Source: Marsupella aquatica (Eukaryota > Plantae > Marchantiophyta). From it: a stretch of 41,000 nucleotides of DNA. The stretch lies in NCBI GenBank assembly GCA_973895155.1, contig OZ316891.1, forward strand, positions 32,086,008 through 32,127,007. Direction: 5' to 3'. Positions 1-27,633 of the stretch are shown here, piece after piece. Each line of letters starts with the position of its first letter. Within the stretch, counting starts at the first letter, position 1. Below the pieces are notes generated by a model. The model ran no database searches and was not told where the DNA came from. It saw nothing but the letters and a program-made list of their open reading frames with translations. The position numbers were made by a program, and so were the translations under genes.

Positions 1-1235
1 TGCTTCTCTCTCTGTGGTGGAGTAGTTCCGTTCGGCATCGGCAAGCTGACGGCTTGCGAAGTATATGGGATGGTCCCTTCCTTTCTCATCCAACTGACTT
101 AGTACTGAGCCGATACAGAAGCCCGAGACATCTACAAAAACATGAAAATCTTTGTTCCAGTCCGGTGCTATCATGACTGGGGCCTCTACTAACATCTGCT
201 TCAATTCTACCACCGCTGTGACTCGTTCGGGTGTGGGTTCGAAGTCTGCTCCTGCCTTGAGCATGTTGGTTAATGGTAAAGCTAGCTTGGCAAAATCCTT
301 GATGAACCGGCGATAGTAACCAATGCATCCCAAGAAGGATCTTACATCCTTTATGTTCTTAGGTTGCATGATATCTAGCCATACTGCTAGCTTACCTTTG
401 TCAATCTCAATGCCCTTCCTTGATACCTTGTGACCTAGTAGCACCCCCTCGGTTACTGCAAAGAAACATTTATCTGGGTGTAACTTGAGACCCACCTCTC
501 TACATCTCATGAAGGTTTTCCTGAGGTATTTAGCATGTTTCGATGCCTTCCCGAATACTGCAAAGTCATCAATGAAGATTTCCATGAACTTTCTCAAGTA
601 ATCATGAAAAATGTTCACCATTAATCGTTGAAACATAGCTGGTGCGTTGCAGAGTCCAAACGGCATACGATTGAAGACATAGATCCCCCATTCCGTGATG
701 AAGGCCGTCTTGATTTGGTCTTCCTGCCGAATCCTGATTTGGTTATAACCAGAGTACCCATCCATGAATGAATATAGTTCATGACTGGCTACCATGTCTA
801 GTACCATATCAGTAAATGGTAAAAGAAAATGGTCTTTTAATGTTGCTTCATTCAGCTTCCTGTAATCCTGACAAACCCGGATCTTGGGTTTACCATCGGG
901 TCCAGCTTTCTTGGGAACTATCACAATTGGAGACACCCAGTCTGAATGCAGGACTGGAGTGATGAATCCAGCTTCCACTAGTTTGTCGATTTCTGTTTTG
1001 ACCAGCAGGGAATACTTCGGGTTCATCCTTCGAATTGGTTGTCGAAATGATTTGGCTCCTAACATGAGATCAATTCGATGTTCCCCTAGTGTTGGATCTA
1101 CTCCCTTTAGATCTTGGTGACTCCATGCAAACACATCCTGAAATTCAATCAATAAGTCACTGATCTCTTTCTCGAGCTCAGGTGCTAGGTTTCTCCCTAA
1201 GTTCAGTTCTCTTCCCTCTCCTAAGTCGAGCTTCC
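1..1235 (-). pseudogene. pol: pol fragment: reverse transcriptase and start of RNase H
   Basis: Minus-strand translation gives VFAWSHQDLKG...WVSPIVIVPKK...RVCQDYRKLN...MDGYSGYNQI...RMPFGLCNAP...IFIDDF. No gag or protease lies upstream because of the deletion at ~1235. Confidence 0.93.
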
Positions 1236-2518
1236 CCACACATCTCACCATACATCTCACACATCTCACCATACTCCATGGCTCTATTCTTAGCGTAGGT
1301 GGAGTAAGTAGAAGTGATCGGCATCGCCCATCGCGGCCTCTGCTCCCAAGCCGTCCTGCGGATCTCTTCAATCGTGGCTAGAGGTTTGCTTCCTTTTTTG
1401 GCTAGCCGCCTGATGTCCTCCGGCCAATCTCCTCCTGGTAAATCCTTTTCCTTAGCCAGGGCTGCCTCCTCCTCCTGCTTGATTCGCTCCTGAAATTCCT
1501 GCACCGTCTGTTTTATGCCGTCGAAACTCGGGGGAGCAACATCTGGTGGGGGAGACTCAGGGCTACTCTGCTGGTTGGGGTCCCCTCGCACTACCCTTGG
1601 AAGTGTGGGGACAAACCGGCCACAGGTCCTTACTCCTGGAACGTGATGGTCCGACCCATAGCCGGAATTATCATGGCTGCAGTCCTCCACTGCCTCCTCT
1701 ACCTCTTGGACGTCCGGCTTCTCCCTCTCCTCTTCGTCGGTAGGAGCTTCAGGCAATTCTGCCTCAGATTCGGAGCTTGAGGTTCCCACGTACATTCGAA
1801 CACCTGGCTTGGATTCCGGTCTGATTCTCTCCTTGTCTCCAGCAAAGGGGTTTTCTCTTGTGAGCCGGTGTAGGCCTACCTCTGTAGTAGTGTCCTGCAT
1901 TGTTGCCGTTGCCGTTGTTGTTGCCGATGCCGATTTCTTTTCTTTCTCCAGTAGTTTCAGCAGACTCTGCATGCCTGGTTGCTGCATCGGCAAGTCCTCC
2001 TTCCTGGGCCTAAACACCTACTCGATCGTAGGGCTAACAGGTGGTTGAGGCTTCTCAGCCAACGGCCTCGGCGTTGGAGCTTCCTCGAGTGCCCTTACCT
2101 GCAGGGGAAGTACCGGGGCAAAAGTCTGACCTCTGGCATACCGGCACAATAGCGGCATGTGATAGCCAAGCCGCGACATGCTCCCCATGCCGATTACCTG
2201 CTGCTCCTCCTTTAAGATCTTCTTCAATTGGTTGAGGAGGTACCCGTTGTAGTCCCGGCTTGGGTCTGGCCTTTCTGCCAGATAGACCTGTGCCTTGCCG
2301 ATCTCTGCCCTCGGCAAGTTACAATGCATGGTCACCCGCAAGAAGTCGATCATCTCTCCTATGTGCGGGTTGGTGCAGGTGTTCCGGAAGAAGCCATTCT
2401 TCGTTGATGGCCCGGGGAACGACCGGAACTCCTTGTCAGGCAAGGTCTTCCTGGTATCAACTTTGGTCTTATTGCCTATCGACAAGCCAAACACTTTGGC
2501 AATTACCTTGGGAGTAAG
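1232..2518 (-). pseudogene. Fragment of the family-B LTR-embedded accessory ORF (within the 5' LTR of B')
   Basis: ORF-track pieces 1178-2017 and 2018-2536 are near-identical to the 30981-34604 protein. There is an in-frame TAG at 2018-2020 where element B has CAG. Confidence 0.88.
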
Positions 2519-3629
2519 TGTCACTTGCCTCTCCAACGGTTAATACGTGCAAACCGCACTTTTCTTCGCTTAAACCGTTGGTATCGTATTACGGGGTCGT
2601 GGAGGGACGCTATTTGGATTCTTTTCACACCAGGATGAGTATTTTGGTTTCCGCTCCCGGAAATGTAGGTTTTGATCAAGTCTACCGACTACCCTCACCC
2701 CACAGCTTTTGATCAAGTCCTGCCGACTACCCCACTACACCTTCACTCGGAGTCACCCAAAGAGTGCTGTCACCACCCCTACTCACAAGGCCGACTCAAA
2801 CCAAGCAAGTTTCTTCAAATCATAGAACGGGAGAACACAATTCGGAAAGCGAAAAAGGGAGAAGGAACACACAACAAAAGCCCATCAAGTCAAATGTACA
2901 GATCCATATCTCTTGGGAAAAACGATACACATTGCATGAGTAACCCGGCCTCCTGCCGTCTACTCAACTCCTGCCTCTCCGGACAATGAGTATGGCTCCC
3001 CCTCACTACTCTGAACACGCTTTCAAACTCCTCAGGCTCCACTCTATCCCTCCTTGCTAACTTCACACTGAGTCCCCCTAACTACTTCGGGGCTATCCCC
3101 CTAAATACTGAAAAATCACACCAAAGCACCCCTCACAGGGTCACAACGGTGGCGGCTACCCTAGCGGCGCCGCTAAAACCTTGCACTAAGAGAAATCCTT
3201 AAACTGAAGAGGAGCATGCGGCACACACATGCTGCTAAAACCCTAAACCCAAAACAAGGGGGCCGACGGTGCCTTCGACGGCGCCCCAACAGTACACGTG
3301 AACCCTGAAAGTGAGAGGCACCCCAAAATGGCCGAAACTAGGTGCCCTTCCAAGTGCACACCTGAGCTCACCCCTGGATAGCTCTTCTTTTCCTGCTTCC
3401 GAATCACTAAGTCGCTCCCTCAACGGACTTCAGACGCCTGAGTTATGGCCGTTTCCGTACCGCAAAAACATAAGTTCTCCAGGCCATAACTTGCTCATCC
3501 TGGCTCCGTTTGAGGAGCGCCGCCTCTTGTTGGAATCAGCTCCGCGAGCTCATCCCAACAAGCCCATGAGTGACCCCCCACTAAAATGTTGGAAATCTGG
3601 AGGCCGTACACCCACGTCCGTACGCCTAT

Positions 3630-5486
3630 CTAATCCTCCTCTTCTTCTTCGCTCTCGGTGCCCGGACTTGTGCCCCGTGAGTGGTCCTCCTCCTCATCAC
3701 TCACGGGAGTGAGTGCCACCGTACTTTTCTTCTTCTTCGACGGAGTACTCTTAGTGCTGCTGCTCCCGCGCTTCCTCAAAGCAGCCAAGGCCTGCCACGC
3801 CTTGATGTACCCCTCACCAATTGTGTCCTTCCAGAGGGTAGCCTCTTCTCCGGACCGCAACTCCAACGGTAGAACTTGCCCCGTGGCCATGGGAGTCCCG
3901 GGGGTGACAGACCTGGGTGGCATCCCCGTACTGACCTGAGCCTCCCGTAACGATTTCCGTACCTCCCGGAGCTTCTTCTCCAAGCTCTTACTCTTCTCCT
4001 GACTCTTCTTGGCTCCATCCAACAAGGGTCCATACTTCCCACTAACCTCCTTCACCACCATCTCGATAGCTTGGGAGATCACATCCGGGGAAAGTGTGGA
4101 GCCAGGTGTGCCGGGACTCTTCCGTTTCCCTAGACTCAGGGCCTCACTTCTCTTCGCTCGTGTCTCAAAGGCTGCCACCTGACTCCGTAGTGCTCCCACC
4201 TGGTTCCTCCACTCCATCACTTCTCCAGAATTTTGCTTCTCTTTGGCCAATGCTTGCCTCAACGCTCCTACTTCTTCTGCTTCCTTGGCCTTGGTGGACA
4301 AAGCTCCCTTCAAGTTGGTGATCTCTACGTGAGCTGCATTGATGTGCCTGACCTTCTCATGAATGGTCTGCTCCTTGGTCTTGATCACCTCCTTCAGTGA
4401 CAGGATGCTCTGCTCTAACGTCTCTACTTTGACTGTGGCGTGCTTGAGAGACTCCCTCAATGCGTGGACTAGCTTGAGTCCCTCGTGGACTCCCTCTCTG
4501 AAATCCCGTAGCTCTGCCAAGTAAACATCCGGAATGTTGTATTCCAGAGGCTGTTTCGGATCTCCCACGAGTGATTCAAGCCACTCCAATGTGCAATCAT
4601 CCTCCTGGTTCTCTTCTTCTCTATTATCCTCCCCACCAGCAGACAATGATTCCTCCGTGAGCTTCCCTAAAACAGTAGTGGCAATACTCCGGATCTCCGT
4701 GGTGAGAGATGATCCCGTGTCTTCATGCCCCGGAGAACCAATCAACCCTTCTGCCCTGGCCAATACAAATGACCCCATCAAATGTACAGCCCCACCTGGT
4801 TTCACACTCCCGGGCTCAGCGGCCAATAGCTTCTTCAATCCGTAGCACCACCATCCGTACACATGGGCTGGGTAGTTCTTGATGTCCATAGCTACCACGA
4901 AATGCTCCTCATTCAGCACTCCGGATTGCACGTTGCCAAGAACCCGTTGATGCACCTTGGCCAGGAAGCCCTTATACTCAACATCCTTGACAGCAGAAAG
5001 AGGGATGGCGGTGGTGGAGGTAGGATTGGTCACCCAAGTGGCCACCATTTTCAACGTGAGTTCTCCCCTGATATTCCGAGGTGTGAATGAGAATTTCTGA
5101 TTCTCAAGAAACAATAGCTTAGCCAACTCCACATGGGGCACTACACGTTTGAGACATTCAAAGTAGATTCCCTCCGTTCGGAACTCCATCCCGGCCTCAA
5201 TGTCCCAGCTCTTCCCTGAAGGGATGGTAATCTCCACCTTCATGAATTCTGTAAGCCCGGTGGCTTGGAAAATGTTCCGACAATCCTCCATCACCTTGGT
5301 GGAGGTCTTGGGATAAATTCGACGAAAAATCTTCCTACCCACCGGTGAGGAACCCGCTGCCAATCCCGTGCTCATCATAACTTCTCTCTCTTCCCTTTCC
5401 CGTGTAATCCGAGTCTCCACGTAGTCACGGTAAGCAGCCTTGTATCTCCGAATGCGTGACGCACTAAACTCTGGTTGATCTAGCAT
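3630..5486 (-). CDS. 618-aa accessory protein encoded inside LTR A (globular N-part, coiled coil, basic/acidic tail)
   Basis: Long intact ATG ORF, same strand as gag-pol, same translation in both LTRs. Heptad-rich segment at about aa 335-450, with GKRK and SKKKKS basic clusters. Confidence 0.85.
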   Translation of the reverse strand: MLDQPEFSASRIRRYKAAYRDYVETRITREREEREVMMSTGLAAGSSPVGRKIFRRIYPKTSTKVMEDCRNIFQATGLTEFMKVEITIPSGKSWDIEAGMEFRTEGIYFECLKRVVPHVELAKLLFLENQKFSFTPRNIRGELTLKMVATWVTNPTSTTAIPLSAVKDVEYKGFLAKVHQRVLGNVQSGVLNEEHFVVAMDIKNYPAHVYGWWCYGLKKLLAAEPGSVKPGGAVHLMGSFVLARAEGLIGSPGHEDTGSSLTTEIRSIATTVLGKLTEESLSAGGEDNREEENQEDDCTLEWLESLVGDPKQPLEYNIPDVYLAELRDFREGVHEGLKLVHALRESLKHATVKVETLEQSILSLKEVIKTKEQTIHEKVRHINAAHVEITNLKGALSTKAKEAEEVGALRQALAKEKQNSGEVMEWRNQVGALRSQVAAFETRAKRSEALSLGKRKSPGTPGSTLSPDVISQAIEMVVKEVSGKYGPLLDGAKKSQEKSKSLEKKLREVRKSLREAQVSTGMPPRSVTPGTPMATGQVLPLELRSGEEATLWKDTIGEGYIKAWQALAALRKRGSSSTKSTPSKKKKSTVALTPVSDEEEDHSRGTSPGTESEEEEED

Positions 5487-5923
5487 CCATGCATCCCGAA
5501 ATCAATTTCTCAATCACCAATCCCGTCACCCGTGGCAATGTCAATTCCCTGGCCCGAAACAGCCCCCGTAGCCCGATCACTTAAATTCTCTCAATTTCCC
5601 GTCACTACTCCGTGCGGCCGCCACTAATGCCTGGAAGAATGACGCCAGCAAGCCCCACTAATCCACCATGAAAGAGAGAGCTTCAAAAATAATTAGAATC
5701 TGGAGAGAGCTTCCGGCAAGAGAGAGAAGAACCCCGTTTTTGCTTTCGGCAATGAGAGGGTCGTGCAAAAGGAAGAGGGAAAGAAAAAGGAAGGAAAAAA
5801 AAAAAAAAATAGAACCGAAAAAACTCCTGGCGCCTTCGCCATGCGCCCCGGCCCATTTCTCGGGCCTTACCCTTGCGTCCTCCTGCGCGCGGCCCTATGC
5901 AGGGCGCGCGGCCATTCCTCCCG

Positions 5924-6287
5924 GCTCGCGGGAGGCCCTTCAACTCCCCCCCGCTCGCGTGATCCTCCCAGCTCACGGGAGGCCCTTTAACTCCCCCCCG
6001 CTCGCGTGATCCTCCCAGCTCGCGGGAGGCCCTTTAACTCCCCCCCGCTCGCGTGATCCTCCCAGCTCGCGGGAGGCCCTTTAACTCCCCCCCGCTCGCG
6101 TGATCCTCCCAGCTCGCGGGAGGCCCTTTAACTCCCCCCCCCCCGCTCGCTTGCGCTCCTTCAGCTCGCGGAGCCTCATTAATTGCCCGGGCACGCAGCC
6201 CTATGGGCTCGCGAGGCAGCCCCTTCAGCTCGCGGAGCCCCATTAATCGCCCGGGCACGCAGCCCTATGGGCTCGCGAGGCAGCCCC
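5924..6287. repeat. GC-rich tandem arrays in LTR A: ~4.7 x 47 bp then 2 x 64 bp
   Basis: Unit GCTCGCGGGAGGCCCTTTAACTCCCCCCCGCTCGCGTGATCCTCCCA starts at 5924, 5971, 6018, 6065 and 6112. A second unit recurs at 6160 and 6224. Confidence 0.95.
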
Positions 6288-6614
6288 TCTTTCTCTCGGA
6301 CGGCCACTAATGGGACTCGCCCTCCTGAGGAGGGATTTATTTAAAAAAAAACCCCCCCCTCTCCTGACTTTGCAATGGGGGTCTCAACAATAGCTCTTGA
6401 AGCAAAACGGTAAGTCCTATGGGGCTGGTCCTGGCTAGTTTCAAGGTCCCAAAATATTTGCCCACTTAGGTCGCCGCAAATCTTAGAACTATTATGAGAG
6501 AAAGAATATAAAGTCACCTGGGGCATCATCAACCTATAATGACGGAATTAACTAAAAATTAAAAAATGGCTTATTTACATTGACTATTAACAAGGTATCG
6601 GCCTTTGCAACCAG

Positions 6615-9600
6615 TTATGTGTGACTTCCCGTGACGGGGTACCCGTCACATAGCTCCTCTCTTAATTGCGAAGCGCCCCCGCGAGCACCATACTCTTCCT
6701 CCGTGTAGTACTTCTTTAGGCGCTCTTGATTGATCCGTGTGTTGAGTAGTTGCCCCTCCAATGTCTTGAGTTGAACCGAGCCGTTGGAGTAGACGGCATC
6801 CACTACGTAGGGTCCCATCCACCGTGTATGCAACTTCCCGGGGAAATGCATGAAGCGGCTATCGTAGAGGAGCACCAAATCTCCCTCCTCAATGGACACA
6901 CGACGGAGACGGGAATCGTAATGTGACTTGCGTTTGCCTTGCTCCTGCTCCGTATGTGTCAAAGCCTCTTCTCGTGTCTCCGTGAGTTGCTCCAACTGTT
7001 GGATCCGTGAAGCGACACTTTCTTCTGCCCCTTCCCTTTCCCGTGTTAGGATTCGAATGGTTGGAACCTCAAATTCCACCGGCACAAGAGAGTGTTGTCC
7101 AAACACAAGGAAATAGGGGCTGTGGCCCGTGGTAGTCTTGTGAGCCAGGTTGTAAGCGTAAGTGGCAGCCAACAACTTCAAATCCCAATCGGTCTTGTGA
7201 GCGGATACCGTTTTGTTGAGGATCTTGCCCATGATCCCGTTGGCTCTCTCAGTGAGCCCGTTGGCTCGAGGGTGGTACGGAGTGGTCTTCCTATGTGAGA
7301 TCAAGTAGTTCTCCGTCAAACGTTCAATCGTATGATTGAGGAAGTGAGTACCCCTGTCACTTACCAACTCCAATGGTGGACCAAATCGTGTAAAAATCTG
7401 CTCATACAAAAAACGTGCCGTGGTGTTGGCATCATCCTTGGCAGTAGCTCGGGCCTCCACCCACTTGGTGGCATAGTCCGTTGCAAGAATGATGTAGCGC
7501 TTCCTCCCTCTTCGTGTGATGGGAGTGAAAGGGCCAATGAAGTCCACCCCCCACTTCTCAAAGGGTGCAAGAGGAAGTATGGGCACCAATGGGTGTCGTG
7601 AGGAGGGCCCTGGTTTGCCTTGACGCTGGCACGGATCACATCGCTGGATGTACCGGTGTACATCCCGAAAGAGAGTTGGCCACCAATATCCAGCATCTAG
7701 TATTTTCCTTGCGGTGGTCTCCCGTGCAAAGTGGCCACCAGCTTCCTCCTCATGTAATGCTGCCATGACTGTACGTATCTCCGCTTCCTCCAAACAACGA
7801 CGAAGTCGGCCATCCATGCCGTACTTGTGAAGTACTCCCTTCACAAGCAAGTAGGGACCTGTCTTACGCAAAAACACTGCTGCTCTCTCCGGGCCCAAAC
7901 GTGAGGGAACTCTAGCCGTGCGGAGAAATTCCAAAATTTCTCCATACCAAGTAGTGGCCTCTGTATTCACGCTGAACACTTCCTCATCCGGGAACCGATC
8001 ATCAATCTCCTGGGAGTCAGATGCTCCCTCAATACGGGAGAAGAAGTCTGCATTGCTATGACTCTTCCCCGATCTTACTCTCACCTCATAGTTGAACTCT
8101 TGTAGCAACAAAACCCAACGTGCAATTCTCCCGGACAGATCTGGCTTGTTGACCATGTATTTCAAGCTGTTGTGATCCGTGTGGAACACAACCTTGTACC
8201 CCAACAAATAATGACGATACTTCTTACAAGCGTAGATGATACCAAGTGCCTCCCTATCGGTGGGTGAGTAGTTTTTCTCTGCCGGGGCCAACTGCCTACT
8301 GGCAAAGTAGATGGGATGGTCTCTTCCATCATCATCTAACTGACTCAAAACGGCACCGATGCAAAATCCTGATACGTCTACGTAAACATGGAATTCCTTA
8401 TTCCAATTGGGCGTAATGAGCACGGGGGCCTCTAGCAATCGTTTCTTCAATTCATCAAAAGCAGCCTGACGGGAAGGAGTAGGTTCAAACTCACTTCCTT
8501 TTTTCAACATGGAAGTGAGTGGCATGGCTACCTTGGCAAAGTCTTTGATGAAGCGTCGGTAGTAGCCAACACACCCCAAGAACCCTCTCACTTCCTTCAC
8601 ATTCTTGGGAAATGAGACTGCTACCCACACGGCGACCTTCTCACGATCAACTTCAATCCCTCGTGCAGACACTTTGTGGCCCAATAGGATTCCCTCCTCA
8701 ATTCCAAAGAAACATTTCTCCGGATGCAGCTTCAGGCAAGTCTCCCGGCACCGCTGAAAAGTCAACCGTAAGTGTTCCGGATGCTTGACTCGTTTGCCGT
8801 AGACAGCAAAGTCATCAATAAAGATCTCCAAGAACCTGCGTAAAAAGTCATGAAATATATTCATCATGAGCCGTTGGAACATGCCAGGGGCATTGCACAA
8901 CCCAAAAGGCATTCTCCGGAATGCAAAAATCCCCCACTCTGTTGTGAAAGCCGTCTTGAGTTGGTCCTCCTCCCGTATCCAGATTTGGTTGTACCCAGAG
9001 TAGCCATCCAAGAAGCTGTATATCTCCCAACCTGCTACCATGTCCAACACGATATCCGTGAACGGTAGCGGGTAGTGATCCTTCTTGGTCGCATCATTCA
9101 ACTTTCGAAAATCTTGGCACACCCGTATTTTCACCTTCCCGTCTGGCCCCTTTTTCTTGGGCACGATTACGATGGGTGACACCCACTCACTATGCATGAC
9201 CGGATAAATGAATCCTGCATCCAACAAACGGTCAATCTCCTCCTTCACCATGAGTGAGTATTTGGGGTTGAGGCGGTATTGGCGTTGCCTCACAGGTCGT
9301 GCTCCTGACATCAGGTCAATGCTGTGCTCACCAAACTCAGGTGGCACTCCTTTCAAATCTTGGTGGCTCCACGCAAATACGTCTTGGTACTCTTTCAACA
9401 ATTCCTGAATCGTGCGTTGCTCCGTAGCATCCAACTTACTACCAATGTTGAGTGTCTTGCCCTCACCCACTTCCACCTTTGTGTACTGCTCCGGCCTGAT
9501 CACGTCCAACTTGTTGCGTGTCTCCTCATCAAAGGTTTCTTCCAACCGTGCGAGCCTCATCCCTCCATACACCGGTGCATCACTCTCCTCCTGGTCTGGT

Positions 9601-12600
9601 CGGGATGGAGGTGGATCCTTTGTCACATGGGCCATTATTTCTTCAACGTCAGATTCTTTGTAATGTGACAATAGCTCCTCTCTAAAGTCATCATCCAGGA
9701 TGTCATTCAAAAACTGCTCTCTTTGCTCATCATCAAACATGATCGTGTGGGCTTGCATTTCCACCTCCTCGGGGTGATCCTCTGCCTCCCTATCATGAAT
9801 CTCTAGAGGTTCAGCCTCCACAATTTTGCTTCGCTCGTCTTCCATCTCTTCTAGAACAGCGTGCACTTGGCTAACTGATTCCTCTACTGCATGCTCTTGA
9901 GTAGCAACTCCGGGGCCAAAAACATCTTCCTCCGTGAGGTGAGAAATCAGTTTCACCATGTATACTTCATCCTCGTCTTCATCTGAGGTGACCTCTGAAT
10001 CATATTCCTCCTCCATAGTCGTAGTCTCCCCGTGAGGTGACTCCGCTGACCATGGAATAGTGATAGTGGGGATACCAAACCGAAACTGCCGTTTGCCCCA
10101 ATCACTTGTGACCTTGGCCACATACAACCATGGCCTGCCAATTAAAATGGGAAAACCGTACGGCCGAACGGGTCGCATCACCAAATAGTTGAGGGGGAAA
10201 GATTTTCCCCCAATCATTGTTGGAATCTTGGTGAGACACCCCAACGGCACCACCCGTGCACCATCAGCCAACCTCATGGCACGTGCCGGTGGTTCTAACT
10301 CTGTATACCCCAACCGGTTTGCCGTCTCCTCAGTCATGATGTTGACTCCCGAGCCCCCGTCCACCGGTACAAACCGTATTGCACATCCATTGATGTCCAC
10401 CGTGAGTTCTGGGGCACCCAAATCCTCCGTGACCCAGTTGACTTGTATGGGGTCAGCCCCAACTTTGGGTAACCTTCTTCTACGTCTCCTCCTCATGAGA
10501 ATCTCCTTGACTTGGCGACGGTATAGGGAGCTATCCCGTAATAGTTGACCAATTGTGGCACTGACTGGGCAATCCAGAATGTCTTGAGCAATGTTGTACG
10601 CGGTTGCAGGAGGTATGGGTGGGATGACCTCTTCTCCCGGTTTCCAACGAACAACCCTCTCCTCCGCTTTCTTTCTGGCCTTTGCCTCCTCCATGTCTTT
10701 GTCAATGGCCGCTTGCATGGCTTGTGCTTCTAGCTCCTCCAACTGCTTACGTACCTCTTCTCCCACCTTCGGATAGAACAACTTGGGGTTGTCCCGATCA
10801 AAGTCACTATCCTCCATGGGTGGCACCTCCGGTTCGTGTGAGGTACCCGATGTGGAAGCTTGATGCACCTCCTTGTACTTCTGCTTGAGCTCGGACTTGC
10901 CCTTCTTTTTGCCGGATCGAGTGGAGACTCGGTAACAAGAGTAATGCCTTCTCTCCTCGTCGCTGTCTTCCTCCGGTAGATTCTCAGCATGAGTCCACTC
11001 ATGACTTGGGGGTGAGGGGTTAGCAACTTCAACTTCCGTAGATGTTGCAACAACAACCACCGGTATCTCAACAACTGGAGATACTACAACGACTAGCGGT
11101 ACCACCTCCTCCGTTATGGTGGTCATCCTTTGCTTGGGAATGTTCACTACGGTTTCTTCTCTTCTAGTGATTAGAGGGGTGTCGACTGCTTCCGTGGTGA
11201 GAAAGTTGACGCTAGCTTCTTTCAGAGGAGGTGGCGGCCCCTTCTTCTCTTGTGCCCCAATCGGTTGAGCCTTGAACGCCTCCAAGGTTGGGCAGTGTGG
11301 TGCAAGATGACCCTCCCCCTTGCATAGTTGACACAGCCGGGCAAAATCTCCATTGCCTTGACGGGTGGGCTCTGGGCACACATTAGCGTAGTGGCCCGCC
11401 ACTCTACAATTGTAACAAATAGGGATCTTCCTCACTCCAGGGTACGGTGGTCGATTCCCTGGGTTAGCGTTGGGATAGTTGGAGTATGCGGGTGCTCCGG
11501 CGTTTGTTGAAACTCCATGAATGCTCCGTGGTCCCGGGTTGAGAGGTTGTACACTATACACGTTGGCCTCTGGTGGCTCCTCCATGAAGTACTCTATTGG
11601 CCCTTCCGCTGCATATGAAGGATTTGAGTAGCTTGCCCCCTCAACATCCTCCTCCCGTACTTGGAAAACCTTGGCTGGTTCTCCCGCTGGGCACTCCTTC
11701 GGGGCATGACCAAACTTCATGCACTTGGTGCACCACACATTGGCTCTCTCCACCGGAACTTTTCTCCTCTCAGGTTTGAGTCCGGCAAAATGTACTTTCA
11801 ACGCTTTCATTTGCTCCGTCAGCTCATCATATCTGGCCTCTTGCTCCTTCAGGCGTCTTGCCGTAGACAATGGTGTAACGGCCACCGTGGGTAGTATCAC
11901 TTCACGGTGAGAGGACTTCTTGACTTTCTTTGACAACTTCTTCTTCTTCCTCCTTCGTCTTTCAGCTTCTGACTCCGTAGTGTCTGACTCTGTAGTACTC
12001 TCAGAATCCTCAGATTCATCACTACTATCTGAATCAGATCCACTCGACTCCTCACTGGAGGAACTGTCAACCGGCTTCAGCTTCTTTCTTTGGCAACGCT
12101 TGCTTGTGGCATCAGCTGCGGTGTATGACTCCGCTGCTGCAATAGCTTCAGCCAATGTGGTTGGCTTGGCTTGACGTACAAAGAACCCCATCTTGCTTGG
12201 TAGGGCAGCCACAAACCAGGCTTGACGCATAGCATCATCGGTACGGGCTTGGATCCGACGTACCAGCTTTTGGAACCTTTGCAAAAACCTCCGTAATGAC
12301 TCCTTCTTCTTCATCCTGAGTTGGCCCACCTTTAATAGTGAGGTGGCCTCCACTCCTATGGATCTGAACTCCTTCAAGAAGGCTTGCTTGAACAGAGCCC
12401 AATCAGCTTTCACGTTGGCCAACAACGAAATGAACCATGGACCTGCCTCCCCTCTCATCATTCCAGGAATGATAGTGAGCTTATGTGCAGACTCCCCATT
12501 AGCTTCGGCAATCCCTTCAAACTCCTCAATCCATTCGTCTGGATCATCCTTTGGTCTCCCCTTGAAGGGTACGTACTGAACACGGGTACGTTGTGCAGCT

Positions 12601-13013
12601 GCCATCGGTGCAGCCGGTGCCTGTATCAACACAGGTGGTAATGGCGCTTGTTGGGCCACCGGTAACAGCACCGATGATAGGTGTGAGATGATTTGTGGCA
12701 ATGCAGTGAGCTCTGGGATCAGATTTTGTAACTCAGACTGCACCAACACAAAGGGCTCTCCTTCTTCTCGCTCGTGATCTATGTCTGGCTCTTCGTCTGG
12801 GCATATGGCCTCATTACGTTGAGCCTCTTCCTGTTGCACACCAACTTGTTCTTCCAGCACCAGTGGCAACCTCCTCTCTTCTGCAAGCCGTAAGCGTTCT
12901 TCGGCAGCAACTCGTCGTCTGGTCCCAATCCAAGAGGGCCCCCCTTCTAGCTCTGATCTTGGGGTACGTGTGTGTTGGGGACTTCCTCTACCTCCCCTTC
13001 TCCCTCTCGGCAT
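6615..13013 (-). CDS. gag-pol: Gag-Pol polyprotein, 2132 aa, intact
   Basis: Gag capsid-like region, three CCHC knuckles, protease VDGGSG, RT (LDGYSGYNQI, MPFGL, FIDD), RNase H (VDVS...DREAL...TDH) and integrase (HHCC, VDFIGP, SDRG, NGLTER) in Gypsy order. Confidence 0.98.
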   Translation of the reverse strand: MPRGRRGGRGSPQHTRTPRSELEGGPSWIGTRRRVAAEERLRLAEERRLPLVLEEQVGVQQEEAQRNEAICPDEEPDIDHEREEGEPFVLVQSELQNLIPELTALPQIISHLSSVLLPVAQQAPLPPVLIQAPAAPMAAAQRTRVQYVPFKGRPKDDPDEWIEEFEGIAEANGESAHKLTIIPGMMRGEAGPWFISLLANVKADWALFKQAFLKEFRSIGVEATSLLKVGQLRMKKKESLRRFLQRFQKLVRRIQARTDDAMRQAWFVAALPSKMGFFVRQAKPTTLAEAIAAAESYTAADATSKRCQRKKLKPVDSSSSEESSGSDSDSSDESEDSESTTESDTTESEAERRRRKKKKLSKKVKKSSHREVILPTVAVTPLSTARRLKEQEARYDELTEQMKALKVHFAGLKPERRKVPVERANVWCTKCMKFGHAPKECPAGEPAKVFQVREEDVEGASYSNPSYAAEGPIEYFMEEPPEANVYSVQPLNPGPRSIHGVSTNAGAPAYSNYPNANPGNRPPYPGVRKIPICYNCRVAGHYANVCPEPTRQGNGDFARLCQLCKGEGHLAPHCPTLEAFKAQPIGAQEKKGPPPPLKEASVNFLTTEAVDTPLITRREETVVNIPKQRMTTITEEVVPLVVVVSPVVEIPVVVVATSTEVEVANPSPPSHEWTHAENLPEEDSDEERRHYSCYRVSTRSGKKKGKSELKQKYKEVHQASTSGTSHEPEVPPMEDSDFDRDNPKLFYPKVGEEVRKQLEELEAQAMQAAIDKDMEEAKARKKAEERVVRWKPGEEVIPPIPPATAYNIAQDILDCPVSATIGQLLRDSSLYRRQVKEILMRRRRRRRLPKVGADPIQVNWVTEDLGAPELTVDINGCAIRFVPVDGGSGVNIMTEETANRLGYTELEPPARAMRLADGARVVPLGCLTKIPTMIGGKSFPLNYLVMRPVRPYGFPILIGRPWLYVAKVTSDWGKRQFRFGIPTITIPWSAESPHGETTTMEEEYDSEVTSDEDEDEVYMVKLISHLTEEDVFGPGVATQEHAVEESVSQVHAVLEEMEDERSKIVEAEPLEIHDREAEDHPEEVEMQAHTIMFDDEQREQFLNDILDDDFREELLSHYKESDVEEIMAHVTKDPPPSRPDQEESDAPVYGGMRLARLEETFDEETRNKLDVIRPEQYTKVEVGEGKTLNIGSKLDATEQRTIQELLKEYQDVFAWSHQDLKGVPPEFGEHSIDLMSGARPVRQRQYRLNPKYSLMVKEEIDRLLDAGFIYPVMHSEWVSPIVIVPKKKGPDGKVKIRVCQDFRKLNDATKKDHYPLPFTDIVLDMVAGWEIYSFLDGYSGYNQIWIREEDQLKTAFTTEWGIFAFRRMPFGLCNAPGMFQRLMMNIFHDFLRRFLEIFIDDFAVYGKRVKHPEHLRLTFQRCRETCLKLHPEKCFFGIEEGILLGHKVSARGIEVDREKVAVWVAVSFPKNVKEVRGFLGCVGYYRRFIKDFAKVAMPLTSMLKKGSEFEPTPSRQAAFDELKKRLLEAPVLITPNWNKEFHVYVDVSGFCIGAVLSQLDDDGRDHPIYFASRQLAPAEKNYSPTDREALGIIYACKKYRHYLLGYKVVFHTDHNSLKYMVNKPDLSGRIARWVLLLQEFNYEVRVRSGKSHSNADFFSRIEGASDSQEIDDRFPDEEVFSVNTEATTWYGEILEFLRTARVPSRLGPERAAVFLRKTGPYLLVKGVLHKYGMDGRLRRCLEEAEIRTVMAALHEEEAGGHFARETTARKILDAGYWWPTLFRDVHRYIQRCDPCQRQGKPGPSSRHPLVPILPLAPFEKWGVDFIGPFTPITRRGRKRYIILATDYATKWVEARATAKDDANTTARFLYEQIFTRFGPPLELVSDRGTHFLNHTIERLTENYLISHRKTTPYHPRANGLTERANGIMGKILNKTVSAHKTDWDLKLLAATYAYNLAHKTTTGHSPYFLVFGQHSLVPVEFEVPTIRILTREREGAEESVASRIQQLEQLTETREEALTHTEQEQGKRKSHYDSRLRRVSIEEGDLVLLYDSRFMHFPGKLHTRWMGPYVVDAVYSNGSVQLKTLEGQLLNTRINQERLKKYYTEEEYGARGGASQLREELCDGYPVTGSHT
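6651..6665 (-). promoter_or_regulatory. Polypurine tract of element A
   Basis: Minus strand TTAAGAGAGGAGCTA immediately precedes the TG of the 3' LTR. Confidence 0.88.
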
Positions 13014-13073
13014 CCCATTGAGACCTGCATTCCAAACTTACACCAATGTCTCAGAAAGCAATATTTGTAAACA

Positions 13074-13168
13074 TCAACCGTCGCACGATGCGTTGTGGTT
13101 GACGTACAATAACAAAGTAACCAACAAACTTCTCACGTATCAACCGTCGCAAGTTGCGTTGTGGTTGA
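13074..13168. repeat. Twin 29-nt stem-loops in the leader of element A
   Basis: TCAACCGTCGCA-cga/agt-TGCGTTGTGGTTGA at 13074-13102 and 13140-13168. Confidence 0.75.
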
Positions 13169-13230
13169 TAGGTTTGAACTCCCAATAGACGTAGCTCCCC
13201 TCCTTCGTGTCGTCAAACAAGAAGAAGGAT

Positions 13231-13248
13231 TCCCCGGCAGCGGCGCCA
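13231..13248 (-). promoter_or_regulatory. Primer binding site of element A (tRNA-Asp type, Athila-like)
   Basis: Minus strand TGGCGCCGCTGCCGGGGA differs by one base from the Athila-type TGGCGCCGTTGCCGGGGA and lies 20 nt inside the 5' LTR end. Confidence 0.88.
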
Positions 13249-14379
13249 AAAACAAAAGACCACACTTATGTCACTTGCCTCTCCAACGGTTAATACGTGC
13301 AAACCGCACTTTTCTTCGCTTAAACCGTTGGTATCGTATTACGGGGTCGTGGAGGGACGCTATTTGGATTCTTTTCACACCAGGATGAGTATTTTGGTTT
13401 CCGCTCCCGGAAATGTAGGTTTTGATCAAGTCTACCGACTACCCTCACCCCACAGCTTTTGATCAAGTCCTGCCGACTACCCCACTACACCTTCACTCGG
13501 AGTCACCCAAAGAGTGCTGTCACCACCCCTACTCACAAGGCCGACTCAAACCAAGCAAGTTTCTTCAAATCATAGAACGGGAGAACACAATTCGGAAAGC
13601 GAAAAAGGGAGAAGGAACACACAACAAAAGCCCATCAAGTCAAATGTACAGATCCATATCTCTTGGGAAAAACGATACACATTGCATGAGTAACCCGGCC
13701 TCCTGCCGTCTACTCAACTCCTGCCTCTCCGGACAATGAGTATGGCTCCCCCTCACTACTCTGAACACGCTTTCAAACTCCTCAGGCTCCACTCTATCCC
13801 TCCTTGCTAACTTCACACTGAGTCCCCCTAACTACTTCGGGGCTATCCCCCTAAATACTGAAAAATCACACCAAAGCACCCCTCACAGGGTCACAACGGT
13901 GGCGGCTACCCTAGCGGCGCCGCTAAAACCTTGCACTAAGAGAAATCCTTAAACTGAAGAGGAGCATGCGGCACACACATGCTGCTAAAACCCTAAACCC
14001 AAAACAAGGGGGCCGACGGTGCCTTCGACGGCGCCCCAACAGTACACGTGAACCCTGAAAGTGAGAGGCACCCCAAAATGGCCGAAACTAGGTGCCCTTC
14101 CAAGTGCACACCTGAGCTCACCCCTGGATAGCTCTTCTTTTCCTGCTTCCGAATCACTAAGTCGCTCCCTCAACGGACTTCAGACGCCTGAGTTATGGCC
14201 GTTTCCGTACCGCAAAAACATAAGTTCTCCAGGCCATAACTTGCTCATCCTGGCTCCGTTTGAGGAGCGCCGCCTCTTGTTGGAATCAGCTCCGCGAGCT
14301 CATCCCAACAAGCCCATGAGTGACCCCCCACTAAAATGTTGGAAATCTGGAGGCCGTACACCCACGTCCGTACGCCTAT

Positions 14380-16236
14380 CTAATCCTCCTCTTCTTCTTC
14401 GCTCTCGGTGCCCGGACTTGTGCCCCGTGAGTGGTCCTCCTCCTCATCACTCACGGGAGTGAGTGCCACCGTACTTTTCTTCTTCTTCGACGGAGTACTC
14501 TTAGTGCTGCTGCTCCCGCGCTTCCTCAAAGCAGCCAAGGCCTGCCACGCCTTGATGTACCCCTCACCAATTGTGTCCTTCCAGAGGGTAGCCTCTTCTC
14601 CGGACCGCAACTCCAACGGTAGAACTTGCCCCGTGGCCATGGGAGTCCCGGGGGTGACAGACCTGGGTGGCATCCCCGTACTGACCTGAGCCTCCCGTAA
14701 CGATTTCCGTACCTCCCGGAGCTTCTTCTCCAAGCTCTTACTCTTCTCCTGACTCTTCTTGGCTCCATCCAACAAGGGTCCATACTTCCCACTAACCTCC
14801 TTCACCACCATCTCGATAGCTTGGGAGATCACATCCGGGGAAAGTGTGGAGCCAGGTGTGCCGGGACTCTTCCGTTTCCCTAGACTCAGGGCCTCACTTC
14901 TCTTCGCTCGTGTCTCAAAGGCTGCCACCTGACTCCGTAGTGCTCCCACCTGGTTCCTCCACTCCATCACTTCTCCAGAATTTTGCTTCTCTTTGGCCAA
15001 TGCTTGCCTCAACGCTCCTACTTCTTCTGCTTCCTTGGCCTTGGTGGACAAAGCTCCCTTCAAGTTGGTGATCTCTACGTGAGCTGCATTGATGTGCCTG
15101 ACCTTCTCATGAATGGTCTGCTCCTTGGTCTTGATCACCTCCTTCAGTGACAGGATGCTCTGCTCTAACGTCTCTACTTTGACTGTGGCGTGCTTGAGAG
15201 ACTCCCTCAATGCGTGGACTAGCTTGAGTCCCTCGTGGACTCCCTCTCTGAAATCCCGTAGCTCTGCCAAGTAAACATCCGGAATGTTGTATTCCAGAGG
15301 CTGTTTCGGATCTCCCACGAGTGATTCAAGCCACTCCAATGTGCAATCATCCTCCTGGTTCTCTTCTTCTCTATTATCCTCCCCACCAGCAGACAATGAT
15401 TCCTCCGTGAGCTTCCCTAAAACAGTAGTGGCAATACTCCGGATCTCCGTGGTGAGAGATGATCCCGTGTCTTCATGCCCCGGAGAACCAATCAACCCTT
15501 CTGCCCTGGCCAATACAAATGACCCCATCAAATGTACAGCCCCACCTGGTTTCACACTCCCGGGCTCAGCGGCCAATAGCTTCTTCAATCCGTAGCACCA
15601 CCATCCGTACACATGGGCTGGGTAGTTCTTGATGTCCATAGCTACCACGAAATGCTCCTCATTCAGCACTCCGGATTGCACGTTGCCAAGAACCCGTTGA
15701 TGCACCTTGGCCAGGAAGCCCTTATACTCAACATCCTTGACAGCAGAAAGAGGGATGGCGGTGGTGGAGGTAGGATTGGTCACCCAAGTGGCCACCATTT
15801 TCAACGTGAGTTCTCCCCTGATATTCCGAGGTGTGAATGAGAATTTCTGATTCTCAAGAAACAATAGCTTAGCCAACTCCACATGGGGCACTACACGTTT
15901 GAGACATTCAAAGTAGATTCCCTCCGTTCGGAACTCCATCCCGGCCTCAATGTCCCAGCTCTTCCCTGAAGGGATGGTAATCTCCACCTTCATGAATTCT
16001 GTAAGCCCGGTGGCTTGGAAAATGTTCCGACAATCCTCCATCACCTTGGTGGAGGTCTTGGGATAAATTCGACGAAAAATCTTCCTACCCACCGGTGAGG
16101 AACCCGCTGCCAATCCCGTGCTCATCATAACTTCTCTCTCTTCCCTTTCCCGTGTAATCCGAGTCTCCACGTAGTCACGGTAAGCAGCCTTGTATCTCCG
16201 AATGCGTGACGCACTAAACTCTGGTTGATCTAGCAT
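14380..16236 (-). CDS. 618-aa accessory protein, 5' LTR copy
   Basis: Same translation as 3630-5486. Confidence 0.85.
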   Translation of the reverse strand: MLDQPEFSASRIRRYKAAYRDYVETRITREREEREVMMSTGLAAGSSPVGRKIFRRIYPKTSTKVMEDCRNIFQATGLTEFMKVEITIPSGKSWDIEAGMEFRTEGIYFECLKRVVPHVELAKLLFLENQKFSFTPRNIRGELTLKMVATWVTNPTSTTAIPLSAVKDVEYKGFLAKVHQRVLGNVQSGVLNEEHFVVAMDIKNYPAHVYGWWCYGLKKLLAAEPGSVKPGGAVHLMGSFVLARAEGLIGSPGHEDTGSSLTTEIRSIATTVLGKLTEESLSAGGEDNREEENQEDDCTLEWLESLVGDPKQPLEYNIPDVYLAELRDFREGVHEGLKLVHALRESLKHATVKVETLEQSILSLKEVIKTKEQTIHEKVRHINAAHVEITNLKGALSTKAKEAEEVGALRQALAKEKQNSGEVMEWRNQVGALRSQVAAFETRAKRSEALSLGKRKSPGTPGSTLSPDVISQAIEMVVKEVSGKYGPLLDGAKKSQEKSKSLEKKLREVRKSLREAQVSTGMPPRSVTPGTPMATGQVLPLELRSGEEATLWKDTIGEGYIKAWQALAALRKRGSSSTKSTPSKKKKSTVALTPVSDEEEDHSRGTSPGTESEEEEED

Positions 16237-16673
16237 CCATGCATCCCGAAATCAATTTCTCAATCACCAATCCCGTCACCCGTGGCAATGTCAATTCCCT
16301 GGCCCGAAACAGCCCCCGTAGCCCGATCACTTAAATTCTCTCAATTTCCCGTCACTACTCCGTGCGGCCGCCACTAATGCCTGGAAGAATGACGCCAGCA
16401 AGCCCCACTAATCCACCATGAAAGAGAGAGCTTCAAAAATAATTAGAATCTGGAGAGAGCTTCCGGCAAGAGAGAGAAGAACCCCGTTTTTGCTTTCGGC
16501 AATGAGAGGGTCGTGCAAAAGGAAGAGGGAAAGAAAAAGGAAGGAAAAAAAAAAAAAAATAGAACCGAAAAAACTCCTGGCGCCTTCGCCATGCGCCCCG
16601 GCCCATTTCTCGGGCCTTACCCTTGCGTCCTCCTGCGCGCGGCCCTATGCAGGGCGCGCGGCCATTCCTCCCG

Positions 16674-17037
16674 GCTCGCGGGAGGCCCTTCAACTCCCCC
16701 CCGCTCGCGTGATCCTCCCAGCTCGCGGGAGGCCCTTTAACTCCCCCCCGCTCGCGTGATCCTCCCAGCTCGCGGGAGGCCCTTTAACTCCCCCCCGCTC
16801 GCGTGATCCTCCCAGCTCGCGGGAGGCCCTTTAACTCCCCCCCGCTCGCGTGATCCTCCCAGCTCGCGGGAGGCCCTTTAACTCCCCCCCCCCCGCTCGC
16901 TTGCGCTCCTTCAGCTCGCGGAGCCTCATTAATTGCCCGGGCACGCAGCCCTATGGGCTCGCGAGGCAGCCCCTTCAGCTCGCGGAGCCCCATTAATCGC
17001 CCGGGCACGCAGCCCTATGGGCTCGCGAGGCAGCCCC
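16674..17037. repeat. 47-bp and 64-bp tandem arrays, 5' LTR copy
   Basis: Same arrays as 5924-6287, shifted by 10750. Confidence 0.95.
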
Positions 17038-17400
17038 TCTTTCTCTCGGACGGCCACTAATGGGACTCGCCCTCCTGAGGAGGGATTTATTTAAAAAAAA
17101 ACCCCCCCCTCTCCTGACTTTGCAATGGGGGTCTCAACAATAGCTCTTGAAGCAAAACGGTAAGTCCTATGGGGCTGGTCCTGGCTAGTTTCAAGGTCCC
17201 AAAATATTTGCCCACTTAGGTCGCCGCAAATCTTAGAACTATTATGAGAGAAAGAATATAAAGTCACCTGGGGCATCATCAACCTATAATGACGGAATTA
17301 ACTAAAAATTAAAAAATGGCTTATTTACATTGACTATTAACAAGGTATCGGCCTTTGCAACCAGTTATGTGTGACTTCCCGTGACGGGGTACCCGTCACA

Positions 17401-18368
17401 CACAACCACAGAAAATAATTGAGTCTACGCCAGCCAAAGGAACTCCAGCAACTACGACGGAGACAGCACAAACTACTGCAACAACAACCATGGATAGAGC
17501 GGCAGGGAAGCGAAAGTAGAGGGAGAAGAAGCTTCTGGTTGAGAAACCTACTTCAGTTGAGAAGAAGATCACGGCTCCAGCCGAGAAGAAGAAGCTTCCA
17601 GCCGAGAAGAAGAAGCTTCCAGCCGAGAAGAAGTCGAGGGAGAAGAAGAAACAAAAAACCGACACCGGAGTTGTGAATTCAACTCCTATAGATTTTTCAT
17701 TACATGCTGAAGATGAGGGTGATAGGCCACATGCTCCAGAGGAGAAAGACGTCTTAGAAGGGAATGAAGTTCTTCAACAAATGGAGCAGTACTATACTTT
17801 TGGGATAAACGAAATTTTTCTGATCCCAGTTGAAAGTATTTTTGCCGCACCAGCGAGACTATGCTATCGGATGATGAATTTTGATCATGTGCAAGACATT
17901 GCTGATTCCATGATCAAAACACCTGGGCATGAGCCACATGTCGCTGATTTGATTCCTTTTAACGTCGAGCGAAGAAAGGTACTCCACTTTGAGAATACGG
18001 AGTCGGACCGGAAGGATTTTTTGGCCGGAGTGAAAAAGGGCGAGGTCCAATTTCTAGCCGTTAGTGGTCAGCACTCTGCGAGAGCTGCGAGATGGATTCG
18101 TGATTGGGCAACGAAGGATGCCAAGCTCACCCAGTTGGCCAAGAAGTTAGAATTCAGGAAATCCAGAATATTGTCTGATCGCACACCGTCTTCAATTCTT
18201 GTTGAGCACTCCATGAGATCAAACGCCATCAATAGCACGATGGTGTTTCAATCTTGCTTTAAAGATACAGTTGTCCATGCGAGGCGGCAGTTTGTTGAAT
18301 GTGGAAATCCAGACAAACCAAAACATGGCGACAACAAAACAAATGCTCAAGACAACCAAAAATTTCAG
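17401..18368 (+). CDS. Exon with Lys-rich repeats and a ParB/sulfiredoxin-like (GQH-type) domain
   Basis: The frame of ORF 17673 is open back to the LTR junction except TAG 17517. It contains PAEKKKL repeats and IPVESI...YRMMNFDHVQDIADSM...FLAVSGQHSARAA, and ends at donor CAG|GTAAGA. Confidence 0.7.
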
Positions 18369-18607
18369 GTAAGAAATGTGATTACTTTGTATGCATTTCT
18401 CTACCATAGAGAGTAATTCTATTTTGGATTCGGATGGTCTCAGTCCGACACGATTTGTCAAAGAGTATTGGAACTTTTGGAATGTTTAGTACGAGTTTTC
18501 TTTTTGATTGAGACCATCCGAATCCAATACTATTATCGCACATTAGAATCCTTTTTTTCCAACCCTTGCGTTGGGGATAACTGACTAGCTTTCCTTTTGG
18601 ATTGTAG
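18369..18607 (+). other. Phase-0 GT-AG intron containing a 22-bp inverted repeat
   Basis: GTAAGA donor, CTGAC branch-like site at 18581, pyrimidine tract and TGTAG acceptor. Joins NQKFQ|DWLAL in frame. Confidence 0.8.
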
Positions 18608-22301: not shown

Positions 22302-22307
22302 TCTTTT

Positions 22308-22325
22308 TGGCGCCGCTGCCGGGGA
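22308..22325 (+). promoter_or_regulatory. Primer binding site of element C (tRNA-Asp type)
   Basis: TGGCGCCGCTGCCGGGGA after a 6-nt spacer from the LTR, identical to the PBS of A. Confidence 0.9.
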
Positions 22326-25477: not shown

Positions 25478-25489
25478 AGGACACCATTT

Positions 25490-25966: not shown

Positions 25967-26028
25967 TGAAGAACATGTCACTCGCTTCTGATTCAATTCG
26001 GTCATGTCTTGTGGGGACACGGCGAAAT

Positions 26029-26043
26029 TTAAGTGGAGGGCTA
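26029..26043 (+). promoter_or_regulatory. Polypurine tract of element C
   Basis: TTAAGTGGAGGGCTA directly before the 3' LTR TG. Confidence 0.85.
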
Positions 26044-27573: not shown

Positions 27574-27633
27574 AATGCGGTCAGCAATTAGAGCCTCGAT
27601 ATCCACCTACGCTCTTTGGGGCTTCTAAAAATG
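27574..27633 (+). CDS. Putative 60-nt internal exon (ECGQQLEPRYPPTLFGASKN)
   Basis: Flanked by TCTCACAG| and |GTATGT, phase 1 on both sides, compatible with both neighbours. Confidence 0.5.

Follow-up and report, generated by a model that had tools for sequence, protein, structure and literature searches.

A Ty3/Gypsy retrotransposon in the genome of the liverwort Marsupella aquatica carries an intact 618-codon open reading frame (ORF), called ORF618 below, in each of its two 4.1-kb long terminal repeats (LTRs). This very young element (element 1, minus strand, 2519–17400) lies in a 41,000-nt stretch of contig OZ316891.1, which we refer to as the window. Our overall reading, to which we give a probability of about 0.6, is that element 1 is a young element with coding LTRs, that the ORF618 protein is a distant member of the ATHILA-ORF1/Transposase_32/PMD family, and that its gene entered the LTR through a shift of plus-strand priming to a polypurine tract (PPT) located where pol ends. 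The coding-LTR layout exists in at least one family and, very likely, in a second, sister one.

Structure of element 1

2519–6650, minus strand: 3′ LTR of element 1, 4132 bp, TG...CA, abutted by the PPT at 6651.
13269–17400, minus strand: 5′ LTR of element 1, 4132 bp.
6615–13013, minus strand: gag-pol of element 1, one frame of 2132 amino acids (aa) with gag, CCHC motif, protease (PR), reverse transcriptase (RT), RNase H (RH) plus integrase (INT).
6651–6668, minus strand: PPT of element 1, overlapping the last pol codons.
13231–13248, minus strand: primer-binding site (PBS) of element 1, the same at 17 of 18 nt as the PBS of the fetched Athila loci.
3630–5486, minus strand: ORF618, 3′ LTR copy, 618 intact codons.
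14380–16236, minus strand: ORF618, 5′ LTR copy, identical to the 3′ LTR copy.

Element 1 possesses two TG...CA LTRs, a PBS and a PPT, and the Pfam domains of its 2132-aa frame follow the order gag-PR-RT-RH-INT, as in Ty3/Gypsy. Read on the minus strand, both LTRs start with TGTGAC and end with GTGACA. They align without gaps and with a single mismatch (5975/16725), located inside a tandem array and outside ORF618. The purine tract at 6651 has the highest PPT context in the element (24.5, using a matrix built from four other elements). Of the 6618 internal bp, 6399 belong to the gag-pol frame, which runs through the PPT and stops 36 nt into the 3′ LTR. ORF618 is in the sense of gag-pol and extends from base 1165 of the LTR to 1111 nt short of the LTR end. 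A sequence-only reading of this DNA had put the ORF wholly within both LTRs, on the basis of the PPT/TG and CA/PBS boundaries, and had deduced two gene copies per full insertion; both points hold.

The spacer between PBS and LTR measures 20 nt in element 1 (13249–13268), 4–6 nt in two other elements of the window (elements 2 and 3, described below) and 11 nt in L001 (7565–7575), a metagenome locus with a related pol. Spacer length thus varies within the clade. The spacers of element 1 and L001 exceed the 0–5 nt of standard searches, and integrase would have to trim a long overhang.

No target-site duplication (TSD) is present at element 1 (GTAAG versus CACAA). The flanks derive from two different host sequences; element 3, in the same window, does carry a TSD (TCAGA). 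Because the TSD is absent, the LTR pair of element 1 probably comes from two insertions, by recombination between near-identical copies, or from a mis-join. Both outer ends of the element still look integrase-made. The missing TSD and the unlike flanks, together with the near-identity of the repeats, the 20-nt PBS spacer and the fact that this is a single locus, would also suit a scenario in which the 4.1-kb repeat is not an LTR and results from recombination, tandem duplication or mis-assembly of a short-LTR element with an internal ORF. We consider this scenario highly improbable. Both repeats open with TG, one directly after the best PPT and the other at a foreign junction, and both close with CA, one before the PBS and the other where it meets element 2 sequence in a clean junction. 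The 5′ repeat begins 36 nt ahead of the pol stop position, with no more pol sequence outside it. No short terminal repeat pair was found within the 4.1 kb, and element 2 shares the layout and has a second copy in which the ORF lies upstream of pol.

A nested small element or a tandem of short LTRs was also considered as the origin of the 4.1-kb repeat and rejected, since the 4.1 kb contains no short repeat pair. Rfam gave no match across 2400–13400.

Lineage of the gag-pol polyprotein

Among the best 120 of 2162 matches to pol, the nearest named relatives come from Riccia sorocarpa (58% identity) and Marchantia polymorpha (47%); angiosperm Athila-type pol is 42–43% identical, and matches of up to 74% across the full region come from unnamed metagenome proteins. 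No pol relatives were found in viral contigs. A quick tree of the RT-end/RH/INT region was built with 39 rows, after 1 of 26 chosen proteins and 7 of 19 chosen loci had been dropped for short coverage. Elements 1 and 2 group with proteins P0001 and P0002, with a support of 99 in the Shimodaira–Hasegawa-like approximate likelihood-ratio test (SH-aLRT). This group sits with L001, with a second metagenome locus, L017, and with the Riccia protein, separate from Athila.

We found no Pfam match to a chromodomain after the integrase of element 1, where pol ends about 30 aa past the integrase C-terminal motif, and no second RNase H family match at E 0.1 that would indicate the additional archaeal-type RNase H (aRH) of Tat elements (Ogre, Retand, TatI-III). 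The sequence comparisons thus place the pol of element 1 in a bryophyte non-chromovirus Gypsy clade, outside angiosperm Athila; judged by this lineage alone, the host would be a bryophyte and probably a liverwort. Of the features of the Athila clade, element 1 shows the Athila-type PBS, whose primer we take to be tRNA-Asp, and the lack of aRH; its pol groups elsewhere and its extra ORF does not precede the PPT. In element 2, as in element 1, the pol frame continues across the PPT into the LTR (6615–6668; 34708–34737), and none of the 46 related polyproteins inspected has an ELCD end motif like theirs.

ORF618 and its protein family

4764–5318, minus strand: conserved N-terminal domain of ORF618 (aa 57–241), 28% identical to P0125, with a predicted ATHILA-ORF1/Transposase_32/PMD-like fold.
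4137–4529, minus strand: predicted coiled coil of ORF618 (aa ~320–450), partly kept in P0125.

ORFs of 618 codons did not occur in 300 order-2 Markov shuffles, in which the longest was 261 codons. A full HMMER scan with aa 1–320 against 1.84 billion representatives returned six relatives with 30–59% identity: five short Logan fragments and P0125, a 596-aa protein of the liverwort Calypogeia fissa. Given these six relatives, one of them a full-length protein, ORF618 is a genuine coding sequence; its start codon agrees with that of the relative P0121, whose first residue is the same one. ORF618 and P0125 have in common the N-terminal domain (pairwise E=1e-19) and a second block that leads into the coiled coil (aa 302–437, E=0.003), in the same domain order. 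A word-index protein search with ORF618 gave no hit among 7994 candidates, and neither metagenome nor viral contigs yielded a locus encoding an ORF618 relative. When the ORF618-family profile was run on 8353 peptides, drawn from 160 loci and the window, it matched only the two copies in the window.

The protein is basic at its N-terminus and ends in an acidic tail; it also has an acidic linker, heptad-like windows (aa 323–450) and basic clusters at aa 454, 571 and 584. The basic clusters are thus present, and the heptad-like windows fit the coiled coil; from these two features a nuclear factor, such as a trans-activator or an anti-silencing protein, had previously been proposed. An env-like membrane protein was rejected as a candidate, since ORF618 contains no transmembrane segment (top 19-residue hydropathy 1.09).

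From its motif pattern we had presumed, ahead of the tests, that ORF618 belongs to the Athila-ORF1/Transposase_32/PMD group. In Atlas feature comparisons, aa 1–320 of ORF618 scored 0.78 with an ATHILA cluster and 0.76 with Transposase_32, below the 0.9 bar and thus a lead only. P0125 (aa 10–205) scored 0.90–0.91 with clusters that include one with 14% PMD, and 0.89 with DUF1985. The predicted structure of P0125 gave template modelling (TM) scores, all under the Atlas bar for naming a family, of 0.68/0.65 with the Transposase_32 cluster (186 residues), 0.70/0.60 with a 73% ATHILA cluster and 0.65/0.58 with the 14% PMD cluster, these three matches spanning 175–186 residues; by query, TM was 0.59–0.70 over 169–186 residues in 8 of 10 rows, including Transposase_32, ATHILA, PMD and DUF1985 clusters. 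Since the N-terminal domain of P0125 resembles these clusters by predicted structure, we think it quite likely that ORF618 is a distant member of the ATHILA-ORF1/Transposase_32/PMD family. A second model of ORF618, although poor, places a helix, a beta-hairpin (aa 108–117) and a helix where the motif pattern predicts them.

Several results tell against this assignment. Neither ORF618 nor its relatives have a Pfam match to PMD, ATHILA or Transposase_32, and the only Pfam matches of ORF618 are weak coiled-coil ones. [quoted passage not shown] A 120-sequence profile of the L017/L001 ORF family (described below) scored ORF618 at -1.4 bits, a value that 64 of 500 shuffles reached, as did 155 of 751 decoys; the hhalign comparison with that family gave E=0.57 and the one with 10 Athila ORF pieces E=0.03, with 1 of 30 shuffles as good. 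With small profiles, built from 3, 4 or 7 ORFs, ORF618 did not stand out from shuffles (46, 19 and 7 of 300, respectively). AlphaFold2 models of ORF618 reached pLDDT 36 alone and 44 with 8 sequences, which is too poor for a fold search; searches with them gave no viral match at E 0.001, and a comparison with PDB sequences gave one chance match only (E 0.85). The sequence-only reading had named retroviruses as the main source of LTR-encoded proteins. Judging from the predicted structure of P0125, ORF618 is probably no novelty of retroviral style but an ordinary extra ORF of Athila type whose location is unusual.

Extra ORFs inside and outside the LTRs of related elements

30060 to beyond 41000, minus strand: element 2, which the pol tree groups as sister to element 1 (SH-aLRT 99).
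30060–34719, minus strand: putative 3′ LTR of element 2, 4660 bp; the best PPT context is at 34720, followed by TG.
40369–41000, minus strand: part of the element 2 5′ LTR in the window, 632 bp.
30981–34604, minus strand: 1207-codon frame of element 2 with one internal stop, listed as ORFs of 674 and 471 aa.
1–2518, minus strand: deleted element 2 copy with LTR-ORF sequence (1258–2518) upstream of pol; it hosts the left junction of element 1.
20911–27434, plus strand: element 3, non-autonomous, with 1391-bp LTRs (3 mismatches), TSD TCAGA and the same PBS.
23297–25477: extra ORF of element 3, between the TSD-verified LTRs, of the L017/L001 family (E=1.6e-6).

Element 2 very likely holds its 1207-codon frame within a 4.66-kb LTR. 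Its best PPT context is located at the end of pol, and its LTR ends are complementary at 8 of 10 positions. The frame encodes a PMD-like domain, a coiled coil and an acidic tail. In the deleted copy, a short microhomology joins ORF sequence and pol; the ORF lies upstream of pol, as expected if it also sat in the 5′ LTR. Stops or deletions disrupt both element 2 copies of the window. Between the two ORF copies, 19 of 420 codons are changed (10 synonymously, 7 non-synonymously, 2 involving stops), a synonymous excess with P 0.005 unweighted and 0.02–0.06 with transition bias; in the pol control, 8 of 10 changes are synonymous. The N-terminal domain of element 2 matches the L017/L001 family by hhalign (E=6e-4, 0 of 30 shuffles) and the Athila ORFs weakly (E=0.01, 0 of 30 shuffles). 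No link was found between the element 2 ORF and ORF618 (E=0.18).

Among 80 metagenome loci screened, two (L001 and L017) have a pol about 60% identical to that of element 1 plus a downstream region. In L001 (pol 59% identical), a 742-aa ORF separates pol from the true PPT; an LTR of 991 bp comes next, then the same PBS as in element 1 and gag. In L017, pol ends at a PPT with TG, and repeats, a TATA box (TATATAAA) and a 606-aa ORF (3158–4978) come after it. The L001 and L017 ORFs are homologous (E=2.6e-29) and belong to an undescribed bryophyte retrotransposon accessory family. This family has at least 209 members; the 120 listed (P0128–P0247) have no Pfam domain and almost no names. Its profile had no match in viral or species-genome contigs, nor in three contaminated metagenome-assembled genomes (MAGs). 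Contigs with eukaryotic LTR retrotransposons, plant-type included, are present in many GTDB species genomes (mostly MAGs; L081–L160), probably through contamination. Element 3, which is young, lacks gag and RT and contains a 158-aa protease-like ORF; the C-terminal part of its extra ORF is 32% identical to the L001 ORF. Within the clade the extra ORF is thus found on either side of the PPT, after a pol-end PPT in element 2 and L017 and between the LTRs in L001 and element 3.

Proposed entry of the extra ORF into the LTR

3571–3588, minus strand: PPT-like relic, 42–59 nt past the ORF618 stop, with no TG after it.
5916–6288, minus strand: tandem arrays (47 bp x4.8, 64 bp x2) between LTR start and ORF618, a candidate enhancer.

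During LTR replication, the PPT in use sets the start of U3. We propose that plus-strand priming moved to the PPT at the end of pol. Reverse transcription would then copy everything between the PPT used and the polyA site into both LTRs, so that the former interval between pol and PPT, with its tandem arrays and extra ORF, would become part of U3, and the final 1.05 kb would correspond to the old LTR. From the sequences, we lean slightly towards such a switch as the event that engulfed the extra ORF. The relic 18-mer ranks first among 4115 LTR positions and was equalled in 8 of 500 shuffles, a post hoc test since the site had been noticed by eye beforehand. Past the relic, 1052 bp of the LTR remain, about as much as a short LTR in related elements (991 bp in L001). 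In L001, a PPT-like 18-mer directly after pol is the same as the true PPT at 16 of 18 nt, without a following TG. Intervals between pol and the 3′ LTR typically carry tandem arrays (PMC11963269).

Other observations speak against such a switch. With a 40-nt PPT matrix the relic is outside the top six sites, and only the 18-nt matrix found it. The upstream motif of L001 is not significant when scored with its own sequence left out (84 of 500 shuffles), and a relic seen by eye after the element 2 ORF was not supported. The first ATG of the element 2 frame lies just 116 nt into the LTR, the LTR end of L017 lies beyond its contig, and the quick tree leaves the direction of change undecided.

The ORF could instead have come into U3 from another element, by capture or recombination, or its position in the LTR could be ancestral in this bryophyte clade and that in L001 and element 3 derived. 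In favour of these alternatives, sequence comparison detects no link between ORF618 and the ORFs of the elements nearest to it in pol, element 2 among them. Five of the 46 related polyproteins end in [RS][EG]DAHG, resembling the pre-PPT codons of element 2, so that many members of the clade may have a PPT at the pol end; in Phygy and Selgy, pol fills the internal part (PMC6317226), and the tree would accommodate either direction. We nevertheless find capture or an ancestral LTR position unlikely in view of the PPT-like relic past the ORF618 stop and the agreement between the 1052-bp leftover and the L001 LTR, and the fetched Athila loci have their ORF downstream of pol.

Transcription and possible function of ORF618

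5660–5815, minus strand: pyrimidine-rich tract upstream of ORF618, a candidate core promoter or 5′ untranslated region.
6631–6649, no strand assigned: palindrome where the LTR begins; the ORF leader has further copies of its 8-mer GTGACGGG, at 5605 and 5529.

If the ORF lies in U3 following a PPT switch, ORF618 would be transcribed from its own promoter, formed by the arrays and the pyrimidine tract, and its transcript would end at the LTR polyA site, whereas genomic RNA would start downstream of the ORF618 stop. Alternatively, the ORF could lie in R or U5: the sole promoter would then be upstream, genomic RNA would open with ORF618, gag-pol would be expressed by splicing or re-initiation, and strong-stop DNA would exceed 3 kb. 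The clearest promoter-like features (the arrays and the pyrimidine tract) are indeed upstream of ORF618, L017 has its TATATAAA box upstream of its ORF, and downstream of ORF618 there is just a weak TATA-like hexamer (3107). We judge the R/U5 arrangement improbable, as the element 2 frame begins 116 nt into the LTR and leaves scant room for U3, and T-rich, 3′-end-like sequence at ~2950–2780 is compatible with a short R after ORF618. To our knowledge, a multi-kilobase R/U5 would also be unusual.

The 8-mer GTGACGGG is present in 4 copies, two of which form the palindrome arms, where 0.19 are expected; this was not reached in 300 shuffles, and the 8-mer is absent from 30.1 kb elsewhere. By its recurrence it is a candidate binding site. 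The weakest step of the proposed mechanism is that a nuclear, coiled-coil DNA- or chromatin-binding factor would keep its own family transcribed, possibly through the repeated LTR motifs; solo LTRs would go on supplying the protein in trans. That the ORF618 protein is a nuclear factor sustaining transcription of its family is a tentative proposal, drawn by analogy. The PMD-C proteins of Arabidopsis act against H3K27me3 and are associated with DNA motifs (10.1101/2024.09.27.615353), and transposable elements (TEs) are repressed by Polycomb repressive complex 2 in bryophytes (10.1101/2022.10.24.513474). What counts against a role in activation is that host PMD proteins promote TE silencing too (PMC5418596), so the sign of an ORF618 effect could go either way.

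The ORF618 protein could also be a passenger or a structural helper (env-like protein, movement protein or particle chaperone) rather than a regulator of transcription. The label env-like has been given to sense 3′ extra ORFs, and a part in chaperoning or at plasmodesmata has been suggested for them (PMC7264820), and the long coiled coil would suit a scaffold. Given the low hydropathy maximum, the several basic clusters and the predicted nuclear location of the Transposase_32 ORF of sunflower Athila (PMC11728184), we regard such a role as unlikely. At its widest, the proposal of an activating factor would make the PPT shift a property of a whole bryophyte Gypsy clade and the LTR an autonomous anti-Polycomb cassette of PMD-like factor, promoter and motifs, which, solo LTRs included, would keep the family and nearby chromatin active; we offer this as a speculation with rather low odds.

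The usual view takes the LTRs of plant retrotransposons for non-coding DNA and solo LTRs for inert scars. If coding LTRs hold for a bryophyte clade, accessory genes in LTRs are overlooked in annotation or filed wrongly as hypothetical genes of the host, and LTR-LTR recombination, by which hosts usually remove elements, would spare an intact gene. A natural test of LTR boundary movement is offered by sister elements that differ in whether the ORF lies inside the LTR or outside it. Gene, promoter and candidate target motifs would be united in one 4-kb unit, which gives a handle on the role of Athila-type extra ORFs.

Other features of the window

Host sequence at 17480–20910 resumes at 27435 after being split by element 3, and its ORFs have no clear family. 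It includes an 812-aa frame with a weak match to an N6/N4 DNA methylase (E 3e-5) and a 384-aa NIF phosphatase-like ORF (27631–28785, E 3e-15), and is possibly the cargo of a large DNA transposon. A plus-strand ORF at 29177–30059, proline-rich with a coiled coil and truncated by the insertion of element 2, has AT-rich DNA and a tandem repeat of 22 bp (29045–29123) ahead of it and may be the accessory gene of another element.

Comparison with known systems

According to reviews, the extra ORFs of plant elements lie in the internal region (PMC7264820, PMC6317226, PMC11728184), in agreement with the sequence-only reading. Literature searches on ORFs within LTRs and on PPT switching, with most subscription papers and Repbase outside their scope, gave no plant case, and a gene-in-LTR layout was found for mouse mammary tumour virus (MMTV) only. 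The accessory protein class is probably known; its LTR position was not found described for plant elements.

Retrosat2, RIRE3 and RIRE8 share with element 1 LTRs longer than 3 kb and an extra ORF of unassigned function, ORF0 (PMC3485330). As opposed to ORF618, ORF0 lies upstream of gag-pol and apart from the LTR, and these are grass elements of another lineage (PMC3485330). Phygy and Selgy are, like element 1, non-chromoviruses of non-seed plants in which the polyprotein nearly fills the internal region, without aRH or chromodomain (PMC6317226). They are described as rather short (PMC6317226), whereas element 1 reaches 14.9 kb because of its two coding 4.1-kb LTRs; this comparison is by description, the tree being built without their reference sequences. 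Phygy and Selgy domains are reported from a liverwort, without such ORFs in the passages covered (PMC12885004).

Compared with PMD proteins (Ogre/Tat PMD-A and the host proteins MAIN, MAIL1 and MAIL2), the resemblance is that predicted between P0125 and the 14% PMD cluster (TM 0.65/0.58). ORF618 differs in having no sequence-level match to them, and the host PMD proteins both silence TEs and oppose Polycomb.

The U3 ORF of MMTV encodes Sag and Naf and has its own U3 promoter (PMC9412291). As in element 1, a coding frame lies within the LTR and is present at both ends of the integrated copy. The proteins are unrelated, element 1 is a plant retrotransposon without env, and the U3 position of ORF618 is the one we propose rather than an established one. 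Sag has about half the length of ORF618. The nef gene of human immunodeficiency virus and foamy virus bel partly overlap U3.

ORF618 also resembles the 3′ extra ORFs of Athila-type, non-chromovirus Gypsy elements (ATHILA ORF1, PF03078; Transposase_32, PF20167). Both are in the sense orientation, downstream of pol and of similar size, in elements with a near-identical PBS, and both encode basic clusters and, by prediction, the same N-terminal fold. ORF618 has no Pfam-level match, however, the pol of element 1 is outside the angiosperm Athila clade, and ORF618 is located after the PPT, in both LTRs, and is hence duplicated.

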